From a virus, in IMG/VR virus record IMGVR_UViG_3300045988_154312, positions 160,001 through 224,000 of that record: a stretch of 64,000 nt of DNA; one strand, written 5' to 3'. The notes below the pieces were generated by a model that was not told the DNA's origin, did no database searches, and worked only from the letters and a program-made list of their open reading frames with translations. The position numbers and the translations under genes were made by a program. Position 1 is the first letter of the stretch. The number at the start of each line of letters is the position of its first letter. Below are positions 2,772-60,101 of this stretch, piece by piece.

Positions 2772-2843
2772 ATAAAGACCATCGATTTCAAATATAACGC
2801 AGAAAAATACTGCGTTAAAAATTTCTTAGACGATTCTGGATTA

Positions 2844-3155
2844 TTGTCCAGAAAAGTCTGGTTCGATGACCGTGAGGGGTGTCCTCACGACCGAAAGGAC
2901 CTCAGTATTGTTTCTGTTGTAGATAACATGGCAACATGTGCCTACACAGAGTTAGACAGGAATATCGGTGAATTTGTCGAGCTCACCGTAGAAGTTCCTG
3001 TCGGAAATCTTCACCTTCGCGGTTCAGAAGCCGTTGAGGTGGAATATGAACGTATCCTTTCTACTATAGATGAAGAAGCCGCGGCAATAATCCGCGGCTT
3101 AGTGTGGGAGAAGGAAAAAGATGCAGCTGTTGCCGGCTATAACGGCTGCATCTAA
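2844..3155 (+). CDS. hypothetical protein (start uncertain)
   Basis: The ORF is open from the TAG at 2769. The first canonical start is TTG at 2844, with no SD. It may be a continuation of the 2481 ORF. Confidence 0.45.
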   Translation: MSRKVWFDDREGCPHDRKDLSIVSVVDNMATCAYTELDRNIGEFVELTVEVPVGNLHLRGSEAVEVEYERILSTIDEEAAAIIRGLVWEKEKDAAVAGYNGCI

Positions 3156-3171
3156 TTTAATAGTTTATTCT

Positions 3172-3206
3172 AGAGAGCTCCATATGGGGCTCTCTTTATT
3201 TTTTAA
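3172..3206 (+). terminator. intrinsic terminator
   Basis: AGAGAGC...GCTCTCT stem followed by a T-run, just after the stop at 3155. Confidence 0.7.
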
Positions 3207-3222
3207 TAGGAGGCATACTGTT

Positions 3223-3552
3223 ATGTTAAACCGCACTGAACATTCTGTAAAAATTTATAATACCATTGGCGTAGAAACGCCAGATATGGTATTAGAACAA
3301 TACAAAGGGGAACCTATTAGAGTTTCCTGCGAATCTCGTAAAGTCGATACCATCGAAGGTATTGATATTTATGAAAATATTTATGGTGAGGTCACTGGCC
3401 TCCCAGAATTTGCGGAAGGCGTATACTACGTCGTTTCCGCTATGGTGCGTCAAGCACTACCCGGGAGAAAAGACTTACTTTCTCCTGGTCAATTAATTAG
3501 GAATGAGGCCGGACAACCAATAGGTTGCCTAGGTCTTGTTCGCAACAGTTAA
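3223..3552 (+). CDS. hypothetical protein
   Basis: ATG preceded by AGGAGG. 109 aa. The longer 3121 start in the ORF track overlaps the terminator and was discarded. Confidence 0.7.
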   Translation: MLNRTEHSVKIYNTIGVETPDMVLEQYKGEPIRVSCESRKVDTIEGIDIYENIYGEVTGLPEFAEGVYYVVSAMVRQALPGRKDLLSPGQLIRNEAGQPIGCLGLVRNS

Positions 3553-3558
3553 GTATTT

Positions 3559-3610
3559 TAGCTTTAGTCGTAGGTATATTATATATCTATGGCTAAAGCT
3601 TTATTTTTTG
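3559..3610 (+). terminator. intrinsic terminator
   Basis: TAGCTTTAG...CTAAAGCT stem followed by TTATTTTTT. Confidence 0.65.
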
Positions 3611-3692
3611 TTAATAAATATTATAATTATACTATTAATAGAGACATTGATGGCGTAATTATGATATTTATATTTTTTTTATAAATATCGTC

Positions 3693-3918
3693 CGGCGACA
3701 GGTGTCCGCCCACATTGTTTCGGCACTCACGAAATCACGTTTTTTTATAATATAACGTGAGTGTTATGTGGGCGGTACCGTATTTGCCTTCCGACGCTTG
3801 CGACGTTGGGCTCTGGGCCCGCGTTGCTTCGTCTCTGGTCGGCAAATACTCACCTGTCGCCTCTATATGTATTCCGGCAGTGTCCCTTCGGGTCGTATGT
3901 ACGGAATATATTTTTTTC
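3693..3918 (+). ncRNA. candidate structured small RNA with its own terminator
   Basis: Nested long-range helices: GCGACAGGTG (~3695) pairs with CACCTGTCGC (~3851); CCGCCCACAT (~3706) with ATGTGGGCGG (~3766); CACTCACG (~3725) with CGTGAGTG (~3757); GTATTTGCC (~3779) with GGCAAATAC (~3841). It ends in a TATTCCG...CGGAATA stem plus T7 (3870-3918). Confidence 0.5.
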
Positions 3919-3966
3919 TTATGTATGCGATCCTGCTGTGGTCGTTTACTAGTGTGTTTTTTATAT

Positions 3967-3985
3967 GACGCTCCGCGTCGAAATG
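3967..3985 (+). promoter_or_regulatory. GC hairpin (TCC loop) + GAAAT motif copy
   Basis: GACGC-TCC-GCGTC-GAAATG, about 60 nt upstream of the ATG at 4044. It is followed by a second hairpin, GAGGG...CCCTC. Confidence 0.5.
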
Positions 3986-4043
3986 TTTTATGAGGGTATT
4001 TTGCCCTCAGTATTTTATTTGTTTCATAGAGGAGGAAATTGTC

Positions 4044-4421
4044 ATGAAAAAGATTACTGTTATTAGAAAAAACGGCGTAATTGCCGATGTTGTAGTAAGT
4101 GGCACTGAAGAGCAAGGTAAAAACTTGTTTTTAGACCATCCGTTGTTCAAGAATTATTTCGTTCGGGAAGCTAGAGTATTTGCCCCAGAAACCGAATGTT
4201 GGCGGTTCAGCGTTCCTAACCATGACGACATGGAAGTGTCTGTAATCAGAAGCTCCATGACTTATGGAGGAGCAGAAGGGCTATTCGAGTTGGCGATGCT
4301 TCGCAATGATAGATGCATATATGATACGCCTATCACCAACGATGTAGTTGGTTGGCTAGATGAACAAGATGTACTGGACATCTTAGAAGATGTTCAACGC
4401 ATCTACGGAGAGGAGGCATAG
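4044..4421 (+). CDS. hypothetical protein
   Basis: ATG preceded by GAGGAGGAA. 125 aa. Confidence 0.75.
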   Translation: MKKITVIRKNGVIADVVVSGTEEQGKNLFLDHPLFKNYFVREARVFAPETECWRFSVPNHDDMEVSVIRSSMTYGGAEGLFELAMLRNDRCIYDTPITNDVVGWLDEQDVLDILEDVQRIYGEEA

Positions 4422-8740: not shown

Positions 8741-9524
8741 ATTCAGCTATTAAAATTCTTAGTCGACACGATAGTATAGTATGGTAGAGATCGTGTCGAT
8801 AGGTTACGAGTGCTAACGAGTTATATGTAGAATTCGTTATTAAGAATAGTGTTATCGATGTAGCTTGCGAAGAGAAATAGTATTCTTTAGAATTCGTAAC
8901 AATATATCTAATGCGTTTGTGTGTCTATCGATATATATCAAGAAAATATATACCGACGTGTGCGAATGGAGTTTACGAAGTGTGGCACGCAATCAATTTT
9001 TATATCTCGTAACGAAGCCGTTTACGGTTCGTATTAGTATTATATATAGCGAAGCGAACAATGTAAGCGGAATGTAACTATATAATATTTAATACGAATT
9101 ATACCAAAGTATTAGAAGTTAGTAAGCGTCTAATAAGTAGGTGGTTTTTTGTTTGGGATCCGCCGTTATCTTAGTATTTCATTTACTAGCTAAGGTATTT
9201 AAAAGTCCCTTGCGTTTATTTTAGTCGAGTTATTATTTAATATATATTATATATAATAATAACGAAGAGCCATTACTGTTAAGAATGGATAGTAGACGAA
9301 ATTGGGAACGGGCCCCAATAATAGTTATTAGATTTTTAATATAATAACGTTAATGGTTCGTCGTGTACGATCCTCTGCGAGTTGTTTATCTTCACAGCAG
9401 ATTAATTACTATTAAGAGTTTGGAGCATTTTTAAAATGGGACAACATTTTGTTAGTATTCTTTGTCTATATTATATATATAAAAAAAAGACCCCCATGGG
9501 GCCGTTATATATTGTTTTGTATCT

Positions 9525-10689: not shown

Positions 10690-11015
10690 CATAATATATT
10701 TAATTAGCGTAGCGTATTACTATATATATCATTAATCTGTTATAGCAACTTTATTAGTACTTAATAGCTGTATATAGTCATATATATAGTTTATTGTTAT
10801 ATTATATATATGGTTTAATATATATTATTAGTATTAAGTTATATTATATATTGCTATACTATGTATATATAATAGTATTAGTATATATGTATTATGTTAT
10901 TATATATTGTATTAAGATATATAATTAAGAGAAACTATTAAATGGAAAGATGCGGGCGATTTTGTATATGGTATTTTATATCAAGTCGTTCACGGATCCG
11001 TATATGGATTTTTAA

Positions 11016-35356: not shown

Positions 35357-35749
35357 ATGAAAATCGACATTAACGATAATTTTAAATGGCTTTTAGAAAG
35401 TTTGTTAAACGAAGGTTATGACGGATTTTTCATCGATGATATGTACGGTGCTATATTCACTAAGAATGGTAAAGTTACAAGTATCGATACTTCTAATTTT
35501 ATCACGAGTAATTTTTACAAAGCTTGTTCTGATTTAGAAGAAAACATTGAATATAGTATTAAAGATTTTATCGAAGGAAAGCTTGATGATAAGAATTTTA
35601 AATTTGGCGATAAAGTTATCATTAGACTTAACTGTGAAGAATTTAACGGTATTTTTATTAGAAAAAGCAATAAAAGTAATGTCGTTGCTACTGAAGAATC
35701 TAAAGGCTTATTATTAATTAGTAATAAAAATATTAGAAAAGCTGATTAA
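35357..35749 (+). CDS. hypothetical protein
   Basis: ATG after AAAGGA, 2 nt past the previous stop. 130 aa. Confidence 0.6.
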   Translation: MKIDINDNFKWLLESLLNEGYDGFFIDDMYGAIFTKNGKVTSIDTSNFITSNFYKACSDLEENIEYSIKDFIEGKLDDKNFKFGDKVIIRLNCEEFNGIFIRKSNKSNVVATEESKGLLLISNKNIRKAD

Positions 35750-35772
35750 TTTTTAATTAATAAGGTGAAAAA

Positions 35773-36285
35773 ATGATCGACTTAAATAAATTAAAAAAAT
35801 GTATCGATTTAGATAATCCAAATAAAGCTTTAGAATATTTAGAGAATAATATAACTAAACATGAATTATACATGTATATTGTTAATAAAATCATCGATCA
35901 AAAAAATAATGATTGTGTTTGTATTCCGATGCCTACAGTCTATAATTTATTTATGTCTTATATTCAGGATAAGTGTAATGAACCTTATAAATTATTAGAA
36001 GAAGTCATTGAAGAAAAACCATTAATCGATGTTAAATTATCTAATAATTTAAAAAATCTTCGTTTGAAAAATCTAGATGATTTTAGAAAAAAATTTATCG
36101 GAACAGAAGATGAACATAGATGGATTATTGATTTTACTAGATATATTATATATATTAATAAAGGCAAAGCAAAACATATTTATATATTAAGTCCTTTTTA
36201 TTCTAAAAAAGAAGACAATATATATGGCATGTTTGTTTATAACGTTAATTTTATCGATAATTTTAAATTCGTAGATGAACGATAA
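35773..36285 (+). CDS. hypothetical protein, tandem duplicate A
   Basis: 170 aa. Its N-terminal ~85 aa are closely similar to the next gene (YIVNKIIDQK(N/D)N(D/E)CV..PMPT(V/M)YNLFMS(Y/F)IQD). Confidence 0.7.
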   Translation: MIDLNKLKKCIDLDNPNKALEYLENNITKHELYMYIVNKIIDQKNNDCVCIPMPTVYNLFMSYIQDKCNEPYKLLEEVIEEKPLIDVKLSNNLKNLRLKNLDDFRKKFIGTEDEHRWIIDFTRYIIYINKGKAKHIYILSPFYSKKEDNIYGMFVYNVNFIDNFKFVDER

Positions 36286-36300
36286 TTAAAAGGTGAAAAA

Positions 36301-36876
36301 ATGAAAGAATTTAAATTAGAAGAACTTAAAAAAGCTATCGATCCTAAAGATCCGAAGAAAGCTATTAAATATTTAGGCGAAACGATTACACGTGAGCAAA
36401 TGTATACATATATCGTTAATAAAATTATCGATCAAAAAGATAACGAATGTGTATTTTTACCAATGCCTACGATGTATAATTTATTTATGTCATTCATTCA
36501 AGATATGTGTGACGAACCATACAAACTATTAAGTGATATCATTCAGGAGAAACCAACGTTAGAGATTAAAAAGCTCAAAGAGCTTGAAATTAAAGAAGTC
36601 GAAACTGTTGGTCCTGTTGCTAAATATTTGCTTAATAAGTTTAATCTTGAAGATTATGATGACTTTAGAAAAAAATATATCGATACAGATTTCGAATATC
36701 GTTGGTGGCCATTATTCGTAAAATATATTTTAGAAAAGAATAATGGTAAGGCTAAGAAATTTGAATTATTAAGCCCGTTTTATGCTCCGAAAAATAGTAC
36801 GAGCGATTATGACCTTTTTGCTCCTGAAGATTTCGAAGTAATCGATGATTATAAGTTCGTAAATGAAAGGGAATAA
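36301..36876 (+). CDS. hypothetical protein, tandem duplicate B
   Basis: 191 aa. It has the same SD context (AAGGTGAAAAAATG) as duplicate A. Confidence 0.7.
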   Translation: MKEFKLEELKKAIDPKDPKKAIKYLGETITREQMYTYIVNKIIDQKDNECVFLPMPTMYNLFMSFIQDMCDEPYKLLSDIIQEKPTLEIKKLKELEIKEVETVGPVAKYLLNKFNLEDYDDFRKKYIDTDFEYRWWPLFVKYILEKNNGKAKKFELLSPFYAPKNSTSDYDLFAPEDFEVIDDYKFVNERE

Positions 36877-37431
36877 TGCGTTTAGTATATAATAATAGAG
36901 TCTATCACATGGTCTATCTAACAGATGCCGTATTAAAAGATGGCACCTATTAAAATGCAAAAGAGCACTCGTGATTTTAATCGTGAGATAAATTTTGCAA
37001 GCTAGTAGGGGTGTTGGGAAACTAGCACCTAGCGGCGGTTTTTACCCGTCCAACAAAGACACTGAATTGCTGGAAACTCCTAAAGCTTGAATAGCTACTG
37101 CGTGATATCTTTTTAAGATATGAGCGTAAATGCAGCGAAAGCAGAAAAAATATTCAAGATGGTATATGGTTAAATCCTAAGTGCTATAATAATGGACAAT
37201 CAGCAGCCAAGCCCGCAAGGGAAGGTTCAACGACTAGACCTCGTGAGGGTCGTACACTATAAGCGTTTGATAGTGGAAGTGGTGTCGCCTAAGTTGTATG
37301 TTATTACGATATGGATAAGATATAGTCTGTGCTCATGTGAAAGCATGAGGTGCACGTAATGGTGCCGGTCAGAAGTAGCGATTTTGATTGAACAATCATC
37401 CTCTCAAAGAAGTATTCTTCGGTTTTATATA

Positions 37432-37460
37432 TTGAAATTAAACACTAAATTTGGTAATAT
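37432..37460 (+). promoter_or_regulatory. SigA-type promoter for tnpB inside the element
   Basis: TTGAAA, a 17-nt spacer, then TAATAT (within TGGTAATATAAT). Confidence 0.5.
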
Positions 37461-37502
37461 AATAGTATATATCTATTATTATTACGAAAGGAGGTGTGCC
37501 TC

Positions 37503-38594
37503 ATGAATAAAAGTTTTAAAATTAGAATTTATCCTAACCAAGAACAACAAATATTAATTAATAAAACATTTGGTTGTATTCGATATGTTTATAATTATAT
37601 GCTGAATCTTAAACAAAAAGCATATAATATATTTGAACTTAAAATAAATTTTGTAAAAACATCTAGTATTCTTACAAGACTTAAACAACGTAAATCTTGG
37701 CTTTGCGAAGTTGATGCTGTTGCTTTACAGCAATGTTTAAGAGATTTAGATGCTGCATATACTAAATTTTTTAATGGCTCAGGATATCCTAATTTTAAAT
37801 CTAAACGAGGTAAAAACTCCTATCGTACTAATGGTAAAACTATAACTTTAGATCAAAATAATAAAAAAATTAAAATCCCTAAAGTTGGTTGGATTAAATT
37901 TAGAGATAAAACTAATTTTATTGGTTTAATTAAGATTAATAATATTACTATTTCTAAATCTTCTAGCGGAAAATATTTCGCTAGTATTTTAGCCGAAGTC
38001 GATATTACAGCTTTTGCGAAAACCAAGAAAAGCTGTGGTGTCGACTTAGGGTTAAAAGATTTTTGTATTTTGAACAATGGAACTAAATTTGAAAATCCAA
38101 AATTTTTAGTGCGTAACGAACGACGGCTCAGATTATTACAAAAATCTTTAAGTCGTAAAGTATATGGCTCTAAGAATTATGAAAAGGCCAGAATTAAATT
38201 GGCTAAATTTCATGAATATATAGCTAACTGTCGTAAAGATTATTTGCATAAAATATCATTATTTTTAGTTAAGAACTACGATATTATTTGTGCCGAAACT
38301 TTACAAGTTAAAAATATGCTTAAGAATCGCAAACTAGCTAAAGCCATTAGCGATGTTAGTTGGTATGAATTTTGTCGACAATTAGAATATAAATGCTTGT
38401 GGTATGATAAGAAATTTGTACAAATTAATACATATTTTGCATCATCACAACTATGTTCTAATTGTGGATTTAAAAATTCTGACGTTAAAAATCTCGATGT
38501 CCGTGAATGGACTTGCCCAGAATGTGGACAACATCACGATCGAGATATTAACGCAGCAACTAATATTTTAAATCAAGGATTAACTTTAATATAA
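37503..38594 (+). CDS. tnpB: TnpB (IS200/IS605-family RuvC-like RNA-guided nuclease)
   Basis: 363 aa. SD AAAGGAGG. RuvC motifs CGVDLGLKDF and IICAETLQVKNM, zinc ribbon CSNCG..CPECG, and C-terminal HDRDINAATNI. No tnpA gene is nearby. Confidence 0.85.
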   Translation: MNKSFKIRIYPNQEQQILINKTFGCIRYVYNYMLNLKQKAYNIFELKINFVKTSSILTRLKQRKSWLCEVDAVALQQCLRDLDAAYTKFFNGSGYPNFKSKRGKNSYRTNGKTITLDQNNKKIKIPKVGWIKFRDKTNFIGLIKINNITISKSSSGKYFASILAEVDITAFAKTKKSCGVDLGLKDFCILNNGTKFENPKFLVRNERRLRLLQKSLSRKVYGSKNYEKARIKLAKFHEYIANCRKDYLHKISLFLVKNYDIICAETLQVKNMLKNRKLAKAISDVSWYEFCRQLEYKCLWYDKKFVQINTYFASSQLCSNCGFKNSDVKNLDVREWTCPECGQHHDRDINAATNILNQGLTLI

Positions 38595-38789
38595 TTTCAA
38601 TATATAGAACCGTGGGACTCACGGGGATAGCCTACTGTCTTAGTATAAGACGTGCGTAATAAGCATAAGCTTATTATAAACGCAACTATTGGGTAGGAAC
38701 CTCGTCACTTTTAGTGATGAGAGGATGTCAGGTTAGTGAAGGACTGTGTGAAGACGGTAAATCTTATATTATTAATTGGGAGGATAAAG
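38595..38789 (+). ncRNA. putative omega RNA scaffold / intron 3' segment
   Basis: Directly downstream of tnpB. Hairpins include CCGTGGGACTCACGG and CTCGTCACT-TTT-AGTGATGAG. The extent is uncertain. Confidence 0.4.
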
Positions 38790-38909
38790 ATTTTGATATA
38801 GAATATCCTAGTTCAATTTCTTTAGCATAAACTGAGTAATATATAATTGCCAGTACTGTTAAAATATACATAAGTGTGCTGGTTTTTTAGTATAACGAAA
38901 GGAAACAGC

Positions 38910-39155
38910 ATGAGCGCATCCTTTGTAATATCGATTGTCCAGCTACTCATGTTGATGGGTACTTTCATACTTTGTATAGCTTCTATATTAATAGTAGCTG
39001 GAATATTCGATCTTCTTTGTTCTAAAGAAGAAATACGTAAAAAAGAAATTAACACACAATTAACATGGAGCATCGTCGCATTTTTAGCAACGTTGTTCTT
39101 TATTTATATTTTGTTCGATATGCAACATTTAATCGAAATAAATATAATACCTTAA
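38910..39155 (+). CDS. small membrane protein (2 TM segments)
   Basis: ATG after AAAGGAAA. 81 aa. Confidence 0.6.
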   Translation: MSASFVISIVQLLMLMGTFILCIASILIVAGIFDLLCSKEEIRKKEINTQLTWSIVAFLATLFFIYILFDMQHLIEINIIP

Positions 39156-39319
39156 TTTCTATATGGATCGTATCGGTAAAACTATCGATTGTAATTTCAA
39201 ATTAGTGTTTTTTAGCCTTGGAGATGGTTGAATTTCGCTAATTTTCATGTCGCCATACGATTTGTTATTTAATATAATAGCAATAAGAAGACGAAACAGA
39301 AAGTTAGGAGATCAAACAT

Positions 39320-39637
39320 ATGAAGATTTTAAAAACTGTATTTTTTGCTTTTACGTTATTATTAGGTATTGCTTGCATACCTAATGCTAACGCTACTGAA
39401 TTAACTGCGTATACGCATACAGGTAGCGTAATGGCTAACGGTGAATGGCCATACGAGGGTGCAGTTGCTAGTAACGATTATGCCCTTGGTACAATTTTAA
39501 ATATTAACGGCTACAACTATGTAGTTGCAGATCGAATGGCACCTGGTATTCATGGAGTTATTGATATCTTCATGAATGACTATGATAGAGCTATTAAATT
39601 CGGTCGACAATACGGCGAAGTCTACGTCGTAGCGTAA
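39320..39637 (+). CDS. secreted 3D-domain (MltA/RlpA-like barrel) protein
   Basis: Signal peptide MKILKTVFFAFTLLLGIACIPNANA. Contains LTAYTHTGSVMANG, GTILNI and VVADRMAPG..IDIFM, which fit the 3D-domain pattern. Confidence 0.6.
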   Translation: MKILKTVFFAFTLLLGIACIPNANATELTAYTHTGSVMANGEWPYEGAVASNDYALGTILNINGYNYVVADRMAPGIHGVIDIFMNDYDRAIKFGRQYGEVYVVA

Positions 39638-39780
39638 TCATAATCGATCCATTTTACGTATTACTCTCCCGTTAAAGTACTGGATACTATCCAGCACATG
39701 TATATTTTAATATATTTACATATAACGTTACTATTCTCTCGTCATAGTAACTATTAATAAATAAGGATAGGCGTCTTATT

Positions 39781-40296
39781 ATGAATAATTTATTAAAAGA
39801 TTTGTCGGCATTTGGATATGCCAGAGCTCTCGGACTTCGGACGAGATTTTTAAGTCGTGAATTTTGGACATCTTTTGTATTTACTATTATATTTTTAGCT
39901 AATATGCTATTGTTCGATCATTGTAATAATATGACAATGTTTCATTTAATAGTATTATCTTTACCATATTTAATCGTATTATTTGTGTTAAATGCAATTT
40001 ATCATAATACGGTTATGTATTTACTAGGTAAAGTAAAACGTGTCGACGAAGAAAATGAATTGTATTTAGCTAGTATTGCTGGCTATGCTATTTTAAATAA
40101 TATTATGAATGCCATTGGCATTATTTTTAGTATGACCGGATTATTTTATTATTCCGGCTTTGATCAAGGGATTTTAATGAATCCTATTCTGTTTGTGTTC
40201 ATTGTATTCCTTGTGATTTTTAACACATATATCTGTTTAGCCAATATGGTAAACGGATTTAAAATATATTTAATTACACGAAATCAAGAGGAGTAA
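39781..40296 (+). CDS. polytopic membrane protein
   Basis: 171 aa with 4-5 hydrophobic segments. Confidence 0.65.
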   Translation: MNNLLKDLSAFGYARALGLRTRFLSREFWTSFVFTIIFLANMLLFDHCNNMTMFHLIVLSLPYLIVLFVLNAIYHNTVMYLLGKVKRVDEENELYLASIAGYAILNNIMNAIGIIFSMTGLFYYSGFDQGILMNPILFVFIVFLVIFNTYICLANMVNGFKIYLITRNQEE

Positions 40297-40298
40297 TT

Positions 40299-40700
40299 AT
40301 GCCTATTCTATGGAAAACTACAAAATCTAATAAGACAAGTACATATAAAGGATATGTACCAATACCATCGACAATCGATGAACCATCATTTGCTGAAAAA
40401 TGGAAACGATGGCGAACTGGAGATCCTGCTAAGTTTTTGACATATAAAGATTTACAAGAATTAGTTTTATATTGCTATAATAAAAATCTTAGCGTAACGA
40501 CGACAGAATTAGAATTAGTTTTCCATGATAAGCATATTTATGACAAAGAAACGGCAATTAAATATATTAATGAACACATGAATGAGTTCGGCTATATCGA
40601 TGAATATAGCGGACGAGTTATACATCCTGGTCAAGGAGGTAATAATACAGGAACTAATAATAGCAATAATAATTGCTGTTGTTGCTGTAAAAAACCATAA
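40299..40700 (+). CDS. hypothetical protein with C-terminal Asn-rich tract and a CCCCC-KKP tail
   Basis: 133 aa. SD GAGGAG. It ends ...NNTGTNNSNNNCCCCCKKP. Confidence 0.65.
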   Translation: MPILWKTTKSNKTSTYKGYVPIPSTIDEPSFAEKWKRWRTGDPAKFLTYKDLQELVLYCYNKNLSVTTTELELVFHDKHIYDKETAIKYINEHMNEFGYIDEYSGRVIHPGQGGNNTGTNNSNNNCCCCCKKP

Positions 40701-41075: not shown

Positions 41076-41115
41076 AGCTCCCCACGATAAACTTATCGTA
41101 AAGGGAGCTTTTTTA
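41076..41115 (+). terminator. intrinsic terminator
   Basis: AGCTCCC..(inner ACGATAA/TTATCGT)..GGGAGCT followed by TTTTT. Confidence 0.75.
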
Positions 41116-41127
41116 ATTGGAGGTATA

Positions 41128-41469
41128 ATGCGAAATATAGATTTAATTCGTAACTATAACAAAATCCAAGATATTGTCGCTATCTTTAATAGCATTAAAG
41201 TAAGTCGTCGAGCAGTATTCGGTGAAGAAATTATGAAAAAACAAACTATTAATGTCGAATTAGGCAAATTGTTTGTTAAACATAAAGTACTTGACGATTA
41301 TCCTGTCTTTAAAATTCTTGTAAAATTACTTGTCGCATGCTATAATAACCCAGAAGAAACAAACATCTCTGAGCTTAAGATTACAAACGATCTTACAGAC
41401 GATGAAATTAAAGAAATTTACGATAGCTTAGAAGAACAAATTAAAGAAAATCCAGGTATTTTCGCATGA
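41128..41469 (+). CDS. hypothetical protein
   Basis: 113 aa. SD TGGAGG. Confidence 0.65.
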   Translation: MRNIDLIRNYNKIQDIVAIFNSIKVSRRAVFGEEIMKKQTINVELGKLFVKHKVLDDYPVFKILVKLLVACYNNPEETNISELKITNDLTDDEIKEIYDSLEEQIKENPGIFA

Positions 41470-57222: not shown

Positions 57223-58407
57223 ATGGAAAACAATAAAAATAAATGGATATTCTATACATGTAAAAATTGTAGCTCGGAATTTAAACGTATGAGATGCGAC
57301 GTTAATTTTCGAAAAAAGAAAAATCCAGACTTTGAACCATTATTTTGTTCAAAAAAATGCATGCATGAATTTGCTCATAAAAACATTGTATATCATGACT
57401 ACATCTGTCTTGAATGTGGAAATATGTTTCAAAAAAGTGAGCGAGAAATTAAAAATGCTAATAAAAAAAATCAGCCTATAAAATTCTGTTCTCGAGAATG
57501 TAAAGATAAACATTGGGGACGTAATCAGTTAAATGTAAAATGTGATTGCTGTGGGAAAGATTTTAAGGTACAACGAAAATTTAAAAACAAAAAACATTAT
57601 TTTTGTTCTTCTAATTGTTGTAAAAAATTTAATGAAGATAATAATCTTCGAGGAACAACTATTGATTTAATTTGTAAAAAATGCGGAAAGACTTTTACAG
57701 TTACAAATAGTTATCTTAAAAAACAATTAAAAAGAAAACAAAATGTAGTATATTGTTCATTAGAATGTAAAAATTCTGATCATGAAAATTTTAAAAAAAA
57801 ATATGATTACAAATTAGAAAGTTTAAAATGTGATTATTGTGGCAAAAGAATAGAAAAAGGTTTAAATCGATTAAAAGATTATTTTCTTGGTAAAAATAAA
57901 CACATTTATTGTTCTAATGAATGTGCCACTTTGGCAAAGAAAAAACAAATCGAAGTTTCTTGTGACTATTGTCATAAAAAATATACTATAAATGAATATC
58001 GTTTTAAAAACAATAATAAAAATTTTTGTTGTTTAGAGCATAAGAAAGCATTTGTTCAAAAAGAAAAAGAAACGTATGCAGAAATATCGCATTATTTAAG
58101 AACATCTAAAAAATATAATACATGGAGGCTTTCATGTATGGAACGAGATAATTTTAAATGTGTAGAATGTCATGAAGATTCTAACTTAATTGTTCATCAT
58201 ATTAATGAATTATATAATATTGTAAAAAAATATAATTTTATTTTAGATGACATATTAAATAGTTTTGAATTTAATGACATAAATAATGGTATGACATTAT
58301 GTAAAGAATGTCATAATAAAAAACATCCATGGTTAAAAGATGAAAAAGGAAGATTTGTAAATAGCATAGCCGCGTCATTATCAACAGATTCAGAAGATAA
58401 TGACTAG
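57223..58407 (+). CDS. HNH homing endonuclease with six tandem zinc-ribbon repeats
   Basis: C-terminal motif CVECHEDSNLIVHHIN...NNGMTLCKECHNKKH. The N-terminal ~270 aa hold six repeats of C-x2-C-x(15-25)-(F/Y)C(S/C)xxC. Confidence 0.85.
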   Translation: MENNKNKWIFYTCKNCSSEFKRMRCDVNFRKKKNPDFEPLFCSKKCMHEFAHKNIVYHDYICLECGNMFQKSEREIKNANKKNQPIKFCSRECKDKHWGRNQLNVKCDCCGKDFKVQRKFKNKKHYFCSSNCCKKFNEDNNLRGTTIDLICKKCGKTFTVTNSYLKKQLKRKQNVVYCSLECKNSDHENFKKKYDYKLESLKCDYCGKRIEKGLNRLKDYFLGKNKHIYCSNECATLAKKKQIEVSCDYCHKKYTINEYRFKNNNKNFCCLEHKKAFVQKEKETYAEISHYLRTSKKYNTWRLSCMERDNFKCVECHEDSNLIVHHINELYNIVKKYNFILDDILNSFEFNDINNGMTLCKECHNKKHPWLKDEKGRFVNSIAASLSTDSEDND

Positions 58408-59649: not shown

Positions 59650-59693
59650 CAATATATACGTATATTTTATTTTAAAACAGGAGGACAATTATT

Positions 59694-60101
59694 ATGTCTA
59701 AATACGTACGTCAACAAATCGAAACTTTATCTGATGTGGATCAATCCGTTTTCATGCAAATGATGCAAGACGATCGTTTTGAAAAAGGCTTTACAGTCGA
59801 CTTCGACGATAAACGCCTTGCTGACAATTACTATGGCGTAACAGTACCAAGAGATCAACGTGATGTTGATTGCACTGTTCGCATCAATGGTAAAACTCAA
59901 GTCGGTCTTGTATTCAAAGAAGATGGTAAACTTGAAATCCGTGGCGATTTCTGGGGCACTAGCATGTCTTTGAAAACTTTGTCCGAACAATTGGGTATGT
60001 TGTATCAAGCATATAACTTTGCTTATCAATTGGACGCTATGAATTTCATGGGTCAAATCGAACAAACTCAAGATTATATCGAACTTACTTATACTCGATA
60101 A
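59694..60101 (+). CDS. DUF1257 (Ycf35)-like protein
   Basis: SD CAGGAGGA. Contains VGLVFKEDGKLEIRGDFWG, which resembles the DUF1257 signature. Confidence 0.45.
   Translation: MSKYVRQQIETLSDVDQSVFMQMMQDDRFEKGFTVDFDDKRLADNYYGVTVPRDQRDVDCTVRINGKTQVGLVFKEDGKLEIRGDFWGTSMSLKTLSEQLGMLYQAYNFAYQLDAMNFMGQIEQTQDYIELTYTR

Follow-up and report, generated by a model that had tools for sequence, protein, structure and literature searches.

A probable non-autonomous IS200/IS605-type IStron in an intergenic spacer of a large phage

The 64,000-nucleotide stretch of viral DNA analyzed here (positions 160,001 to 224,000 of IMG/VR record IMGVR_UViG_3300045988_154312, hereafter the window) carries at 36951-38731 what is very probably a non-autonomous group A IStron, a reading to which we assign a probability of roughly 0.85. 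It is a single-strand transposon of the IS200/IS605 type, with a group I ribozyme on the left, tnpB, and a predicted omega-RNA scaffold on the right, and it sits between genes of a large phage. Of this phage the analysis covered the 64-kb window, out of about 230 kb, and every feature of the element is on the (+) strand. An earlier note on this DNA had called the region an IStron, that is, group I intron, TnpB and guide RNA in one unit. The call is borne out by a covariance model for the intron, by empty sites in related phages, and by 19 copies of the same architecture. The kind of element is already known; its family is large and apparently undescribed, and has spread through related phages.

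The ends were mapped by BLAST of 36300-39400 against loci encoding relatives of the TnpB protein (designated by L numbers below). Four of these loci, from related phages with flanks 95-98% identical to those of the window (L010, L013, L015 and L021), have position 36950 joined directly to 38732. The empty site reads ...AAAAGACGGYATCTAT/GTTAGTGAAGG... (core ATCTAT/GTTAGTG, the slash marking the point of insertion), and the occupied window site reads ...AAAAGATGGCACCTAT/1,781 bp/GTTAGTGAAGG..., or CCTAT/element/GTTAGTG. The whole IStron is therefore 36951-38731, 1,781 bp from left to right end, and it was inserted without duplication of the target. The earlier note had proposed a comparison with element-free relatives as a check on whether the intron-like part and tnpB were independent insertions, and the result is the opposite: the empty sites lack both parts together, so the intron, tnpB and guide RNA move as one unit.

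The 5′ flank CCTAT (36946-36950) provides the transposon-adjacent motif, with the core CTAT, and the predicted last bases of the 5′ exon, with U36950 as the splice-site U; the assignment rests on the empty sites and on pairing with the internal guide. At the other end the element reads ...GATGTCAG (...GGATGTCAG) up to 38731, with the terminus TCAG (38728-38731). The sequence ...GAT(G/A)TCAG recurs in 31 of 34 copies, and similarity across all 34 stops exactly there; the 3′ flanks that follow are unrelated to each other. G38731 would thus be the terminal G of the intron, just ahead of the 3′ splice site. Both ends carry subterminal palindromes, CTCGTGAttttAATCGTGAG (36968-36987) on the left, read from the sequence and nested between the strands of an extended P1 stem, and 38700-38724 on the right. 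The shape of the left hairpin is kept in all intron-bearing copies.

Group A (IS200/IS605-type) IStrons insert past a T-rich motif ending in AT without duplication, and have a TCAG terminus and subterminal palindromes (PMC4227781, PMC13565253). Their targets are the T-rich pentanucleotides TTGAT, ATTAT and TTTAT, with specificity at the 5′ side only; TCAG is their 3′ end, and the left palindrome lies within P1 (PMC4227781). The window element bears these hallmarks, with CTAT as a variant of the target motif; motifs in its family are CTAT, TTAT and TGAT/CGAT. It falls outside group B (the IS607 type) because its target ends in AT, its 3′ end is TCAG, and the transposase of its sister copies is a Y1 HUH enzyme.

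The ribozyme spans 36951-37354, from P1 to P9. The Rfam model RF00028 (Intron_gpI) aligns over its full length (model positions 1-253) with 36963-37349, scoring 74.6 bits against a gathering score of 50 (E = 1.6e-18), so that the covariance check suggested in the earlier note comes out in favor of a group I intron. This match was obtained only when the search was restricted to 2.3 kb (36700-39000). Two whole-window Rfam scans, one at the gathering threshold and one in E-value mode, missed the intron owing to speed filters; a missing group I match in a large Rfam scan is therefore not evidence of absence. The core blocks lie at the positions where they had first been noticed, P-like AATTGCTGGAAA at 37065, Q-like AATCAGCAGCC at 37197, R-like GTTCAACGACTA at 37225 and S-like AAGATATAGTC at 37317. 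The GACTA/TAGTC complementarity that had been seen between the R- and S-like blocks is the P7 pairing (37232-37236 with 37323-37327) and is invariant in 16 relatives. Selection on structure extends over the whole ribozyme: of the 69 pairs predicted for the intron, 30 have compensatory changes among these relatives.

P1 is formed by CCUAU/UA (36946-36952) and the internal guide sequence UAGUAGG (37003-37009). All seven positions pair, and the U36950·G37005 wobble falls exactly at the transposon end. An outer P1 stem, UGCAAAA (36956-36962) with UUUUGCA (36993-36999), encloses the left palindrome. The internal guide changes along with the target motif across the 19 intron-bearing copies: CTAT goes with GTAG, TTAT with GTAA, and TGAT with GTC. 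A group I intron needs a terminal G, and in 31 of 34 copies the element does end in G. Downstream of the core, CAUCCUCUCA (37397-37406) is complementary to 38718-38727 and may be the strand that positions the 3′ splice site at the ribozyme. The two segments can form a 10-bp helix, which overlaps the terminal hairpin and a pseudoknot strand of the 3′ RNA described below; helices of 8-10 bp occur at the same place in the window, L002, L008, L011, L016, L017, L020, L023 and L025.

The tnpB gene (37503-38594; 363 codons plus stop, ribosome-binding site AAAGGAGG at 37487-37494) is full length and intact, as it had appeared from inspection. The Pfam domains PF12323, PF01385 and PF07282 all match. 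The protein is colinear over 360 residues with ISDra2 TnpB (structures 8EXA and 8H1J, E = 1e-98), and Asp178, Glu262 and Asp345 align with the ISDra2 catalytic residues Asp191, Glu278 and Asp361, so the D-E-D triad of the RuvC domain is kept. Both CxxC pairs of the zinc finger are also present, CSNC from residue 318 and CPEC from residue 338. No TnpB relative above 50% identity was found in 185,579 species genomes, in a scan that reaches close relatives only.

A promoter-like site, TTGAAA-17-TAATAT with an upstream TG, lies in front of tnpB (37432-37460), at the position proposed in the earlier note. The bare pattern is no better than chance in DNA this rich in AT (16 sites found, 18 expected). 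In about 28 of 33 relatives the spacer varies between two conserved hexamers, a pattern that suggests a promoter in use. An internal promoter would have precedent: in IStrons, tnpA and tnpB have been treated as expressed from a promoter inside the element (PMC13521648). A resemblance of this site to the phage's own promoters was considered and rejected, the weak BLAST matches at 10870, 12904 and 13498 being merely AT-rich sequence.

The structured 3′ RNA consists of the end of the tnpB open reading frame (ORF) and the 137 nt between the stop codon and the right end. Structured sequence had been expected over about 200 nt past tnpB; the structure is there, and the part beyond 137 nt is phage flank. 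We place the putative omega-RNA scaffold at 38544-38731, its 5′ limit being uncertain. It contains a stem-loop (38610-38624), a long-range stem (38631-38636 with 38692-38697), the terminal hairpin that is also the right-end palindrome (38700-38724) and a possible pseudoknot, GAUAU/AUGUC (38544-38548 with 38725-38729). Over 29 copies, 97.7% of cells are paired and 8 pairs are changed on both sides; on four of five measures, not one of 500 shuffles attains the observed value, and three helices are supported by covariation. The pseudoknot is conserved and shows one-sided changes only, with no double changes, which is compatible with the pairing and short of proof. Described omega RNAs have three stem-loops and a pseudoknot (PMC10690162), a layout that the predicted fold matches.

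The predicted guide is GTTAGTGAAGGACTGT (38732-38747), the 3′ flank and start of the putative 3′ exon, placed there on the known mechanism of TnpB (PMC10690162). Empty alleles in relatives present CTAT followed by the guide sequence, with the first 11 nt identical. No Rfam family matched the 3′ RNA in the 2.3-kb search, the best hit being Ref70 (RF02841, an Enterococcus small RNA), a weak match at 38604-38777 (+) with 22 bits and E = 0.71. Over the 5′ half of Ref70 the alignment to the first stem of the omega RNA and to the motif GAUAGCCUA is good, and Ref70 may itself be the guide-RNA scaffold of an IS605 element or IStron.

More than 30 close relatives of the element occur at different sites in viral contigs, and the protein clusters with at least 82% identity number over 120, on contigs topping out near 230 kb. 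Both ends are defined for 19 copies, which measure 1,743-1,824 bp and occupy about 16 sites with the same order of parts. At least 10 distinct sites lie inside ORFs, with the element in sense orientation. Removal of the element from L012, L015 and L017 yields ORFs colinear with window frames, the junction falling exactly between codons: the restored frames correspond to 59676-60098 (96% identity), 39751-40293 (90%) and 41077-41466 (96%), respectively. The L030 and L032 copies are in codons 2 and 3 of genes, and the L008 copy splits a start codon (AT/G). We take the sense-oriented intragenic copies and the restoration of genes as pointing to splicing in the family. The intergenic position, which had been singled out as unusual, is real for the window copy and is not typical of the family, most copies of which interrupt genes.

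Insertion polymorphism among the related phages is extensive. The window is empty at ten sites occupied in relatives: 31927 (L003-L006), 36890 (L013), 39396 (L007), 39687 (L010), 39768 (L021), 40047 (L015), 41343 (L017), 42319 (the tnpA-bearing copy of L017), 42782 (L023 and L025) and 59735 (L012). Several copies are incomplete or oddly placed. In L010, L019, L021 and L009, tnpB and the right end are kept, and the ribozyme, the left end and 12-31 nt of 5′ flank including the target motif are lost; L010 and L019 have both lost flank ending in TGGATAC. The L003-L006 copy (~2839-4222) is a precise insertion past TTTAT with a left end of only 161 nt that lacks the ribozyme core; either it is a sister element of an intron-less kind or it has undergone internal deletion. 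A truncated copy in L027 (1918-3630) directly follows five tRNA genes, and the 3′ half of a tRNA follows its right end; it probably inserted into a tRNA gene of a phage tRNA array. In L028 (from 4222; see also L022, ~6046) the right end of the copy directly abuts group I P- and Q-like blocks (TGCTGGAAA ... AATCAGCAGGC), and this IStron seems to lie inside or beside another group I intron. L016 and L022 share a 5′ flank that is 100% identical and elements that are 93.6% identical, with unrelated 3′ flanks, which hints at recombination at the element.

The element is classed as non-autonomous because no Y1 HUH TnpA was found in the window. The absence of tnpA, reported earlier, holds in a tblastn search of the 64 kb with two TnpA probes; the same probes recover TnpA in control loci and in L017. 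This last locus contains a second, more divergent IStron with a ribozyme, a Y1 transposase gene of 132-144 codons, and tnpB. Sister IStrons with an internal tnpA, 91-100% identical, are present in 12 viral contigs, at least 5 of which also hold copies that lack TnpA. These tnpA-bearing copies are at different sites, after CGAT or TGAT. Most sister TnpA proteins have an intact catalytic tyrosine and an HIH (or HVH) motif. The TnpA of L017 (5716-6150) and of L116 reads HIR at the metal-binding HUH motif, which is HIH or HVH in nine sister copies; the HIR allele is possibly inactive. The right ends of the tnpA-bearing copies read GGAACCTCGTCACTTTAGTGGTGAGAGGATGTCAG, almost identical to the right end in the window, and one left hairpin, that of L110, nearly matches the left hairpin here. 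Because copies with tnpA have such near-identical ends, mobilization of the window element in trans is plausible.

Other readings of this region are all less probable. The earlier note had taken hairpin 36968-36987 as P1 of an IStron-like chimera, with the left end or 5′ splice site at 36972/36973 and the 3′ end after G38789. The hairpin does contain a U36972·G36983 pair, the Rfam model aligns its own P1 there, and 38789 is indeed a G, but we give this placement almost no chance. Empty sites join 36950 to 38732, the 38732-38789 segment is flank present in phages without the element, similarity among the 34 copies stops at ...TCAG, and only excision at positions equivalent to 36951 and 38731 restores the ORFs of sister copies. 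In group A IStrons a left-end palindrome lies inside P1 (PMC4227781), and the hairpin is its counterpart here; the real P1 is 36946-36952/37003-37009, and the left and right ends had been misplaced by 22 and 58 nt, respectively. A free-standing group I intron that happens to lie beside a separate TnpB-only insertion sequence, each having arrived on its own, is also very hard to credit. At four empty sites both modules are missing together and the junction is clean, 19 copies at about 16 sites share order, length and ends, and the ribozyme uses the transposon's target motif for P1. Relatives with tnpB and a right end and no ribozyme do occur (L003-L006 with the 161-nt left end; L010, L019, L021 and L027 truncated), so the two modules can exist apart.

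Whether the IStron is still alive is a separate matter. It could be a dead relic, now immobile and incapable of splicing, cleavage or transposition, as the lack of tnpA in the window, the intergenic location in which nothing selects for splicing, the decayed copies in the family and the TnpA allele with HIR instead of HIH would all allow. We consider this unlikely, given a full-length tnpB with all catalytic and zinc-binding residues, intact ribozyme core blocks, terminal G and omega-RNA stems, and end hairpins that match those of tnpA-bearing copies. The site is occupied here and empty in four relatives with 95-98% identical flanks, which also suggests a recent gain. The phage could instead have domesticated TnpB, keeping the nuclease and its guide for its own use, for example to exclude competitors or to regulate a neighboring gene. 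Since the guide matches the empty allele of close relatives over 11 nt, cutting by TnpB would be to the detriment of co-infecting competitors, an advantage of the kind known from homing endonucleases (PMC13565253); the family is also abundant in this phage lineage. The many unrelated sites with a different guide at each are the pattern of a transposon rather than of a fixed role. Site occupancy is moreover polymorphic and decay is common among the copies, which leaves domestication only a slim chance.

For a group A IStron, the following sequence of events can be proposed within the framework established for these elements (PMC10690162, PMC4227781, PMC13565253). Read-through transcripts from the upstream genes would fold P1 between CCUAU and UAGUAGG, and splicing at U36950 and after G38731 would restore an uninterrupted phage RNA with the predicted junction ...GGCACCUAU/GUUAGUGAAGG. 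The conserved internal promoter would produce tnpB mRNA, whose 3′ end would serve as an omega RNA reaching about 16 nt into the flank. TnpB with this RNA could then cut an element-free site, CTAT plus a guide match, such as one exposed by excision or brought in by a related phage in co-infection, and repair from the occupied copy would reinstate or spread the element, which amounts to homing. Moves to new motif-bearing sites would need a Y1 TnpA in trans, as encoded in sister IStrons of related phages. Splicing and guide-RNA formation share the 3′ end and are expected to compete, as they do in experiments with the C. botulinum IStron; the complementarity between 37397-37406 and 38718-38727 is one candidate for the basis of such competition.

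Several points weigh against this reading. The absence of tnpA applies to the 64-kb window, and the phage may encode one beyond it. Splicing, promoter use, omega-RNA processing and cleavage by this TnpB are all deduced from sequence. Because this copy is intergenic, splicing would bring no obvious benefit here and could be lost at no cost. ISDra2 and the C. difficile elements use TTGAT instead of CTAT, and recognition of CTAT by TnpB is putative. Covariation in the 37397-37406/38718-38727 helix is not above that of shuffles, and docking of the 3′ splice site by this helix is therefore kept as a conjecture. Finally, comparison of element with flank identity at shared sites does not separate homing from vertical descent.

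The closest known systems are the group A IStrons CdISt1 and the CdiIStrons of Clostridioides difficile and FnISt1 of Fusobacterium, which likewise run from a 5′ group I ribozyme through tnpB to a 3′ omega RNA, the last being predicted here (PMC4227781, PMC10690162). The window element shares with them a T-rich motif ending in AT, the absence of duplication, TCAG, the palindromes, splice sites (predicted here) at the transposon ends, and the frequent lack of tnpA. It differs in its motif, which is CTAT (CTAT, TTAT or TGAT in the family) rather than TTGAT, ATTAT or TTTAT, in its replicon, a large phage where theirs is a bacterial chromosome, and in the intergenic position of the copy. ISDra2 (IS8301) of Deinococcus radiodurans, also an IS200/IS605 element, offers the closest solved TnpB structure, with the same triad, a motif ending in AT and a guide taken from the 3′ flank; unlike the window element, it is without a ribozyme, has its own tnpA and uses TTGAT. 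The group B elements CbISt3, CbISt4 and CboIStron are IStrons on phage or phage-like replicons too, but have a serine TnpA, GG-ending targets (TGGG), a 3′ end of CGG and a 5′ exon ending in G. DNA similarity to phage c-st is limited to tnpB, at ~70%. For CboIStron, TnpB cleavage, self-splicing and competition between splicing and the omega-RNA pseudoknot have been described (PMC10690162).

Two features that the earlier note had regarded as unusual have precedents. CbISt3 and CbISt4, of the IS607 type, reside in the C. botulinum phages c-st and D-1873 (PMC4227781), so a phage replicon is not new for an IStron. Nor is a missing transposase, since none of the eight IStrons of C. difficile 630 has a full-length TnpA (PMC10690162) and CsISt1 carries ORF B only (PMC4227781). 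Phage group I introns with protein homing endonucleases (T4 td, Twort, SPO1-type) are a functional parallel, being self-splicing introns that probably spread by cutting intron-less alleles in co-infection. Here the predicted nuclease is instead RNA-guided, with a target read from the flank and retargetable by transposition, and the intron is a DNA transposon as well. To our knowledge, IStrons have been dissected experimentally only in Clostridium elements, and no description was found, in the literature searched, of IS605-type IStrons radiating as a family within a lineage of phages.

The surroundings of the element read as phage DNA, with all long ORFs of the window on the (+) strand. PHROG matches in the window include thymidylate synthase, a UvsX-like recombinase and an HNH endonuclease, and a helicase is ~35% identical to helicases of large Bacillus, Listeria and Staphylococcus phages. 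Close relatives of the region occur in IMG/VR viral contigs of up to ~230 kb, from which we estimate that the carrier phage is about that size; one contig with an identical TnpB measures 229,922 bp. Megablast of 35700-40300 against GenBank phages returned no matches, and a more sensitive search gave partial tnpB or intron-core matches only, the best in Clostridioides phage ES-S-0173-01 and C. botulinum phage c-st. Elsewhere in the 64 kb there is neither a further copy of the element nor a tnpB fragment nor a solo end.

The element occupies an intergenic spacer, as the earlier note had it, 74 nt past the stop at 36876 and 179 nt ahead of the start at 38911. A 27-codon ORF that crosses the empty junction from ATG 36940 was rejected as a gene because this ATG reads ACG in L010 and L015. 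Just 5′ of the insertion site is a hairpin (36922-36949, +) that reads AGATGCCGT-attaaaag-ACGGCATCT in empty alleles and has one mismatch in the window; the element is inserted 2 nt past its foot. Directly 5′ of the element are two tandem paralogous ORFs (+), 35773-36285 (170 aa) and 36301-36876 (191 aa). Neither has a Pfam match, and 36301-36876, the one of the two included in the PHROG scan, has no PHROG match. Farther away, the ORF at 57223-58407 (+, 394 aa) contains an HNH endonuclease domain (PHROG 1271, E = 1e-21) and may be a free-standing homing endonuclease. The ORF at 40299-40700 (+, 133 aa) has an odd N- and C-rich tail, ...NNTGTNNSNNNCCCCCKKP. A match to the OTKONC RNA (RF03053) at 9289-9459 (+) scores 138.5 bits, just under the gathering score of 141.4 (E = 5.8e-22).

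Within the window the practical yield is modest: a single intergenic, non-autonomous IStron, now with corrected coordinates. Annotation of phage genomes is also affected, since genes split by such elements, one of them within its start codon, will be miscalled as fragments. IStrons unite a ribozyme, a transposon and an RNA-guided nuclease in one stretch, and this family offers dozens of natural variants, with occupied and empty alleles, copies with and without tnpA, and three target motifs that change with the ribozyme guide. As a natural test bed, it opens three questions to experiment: whether phage introns use TnpB as their homing endonuclease in co-infection, how splicing is weighed against guide-RNA production in a host gene that the phage cannot do without, and how target motifs shift. 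More tentatively, and at somewhat less than even odds, we suggest that a lineage of ~230-kb phages harbors its own radiation of IS605-type IStrons, in which autonomous copies with tnpA and tnpB exist beside many that have tnpB alone. The role of the classical protein homing endonuclease of phage introns would pass to TnpB and its omega RNA, spread would proceed by RNA-guided homing in co-infection and reach new genes via TnpA in trans, and target motif and internal guide would co-evolve (CTAT-GTAG, TTAT-GTAA and TGAT-GTC). If this is true, the family would be a natural system in which the homing specificity of an intron is programmable.

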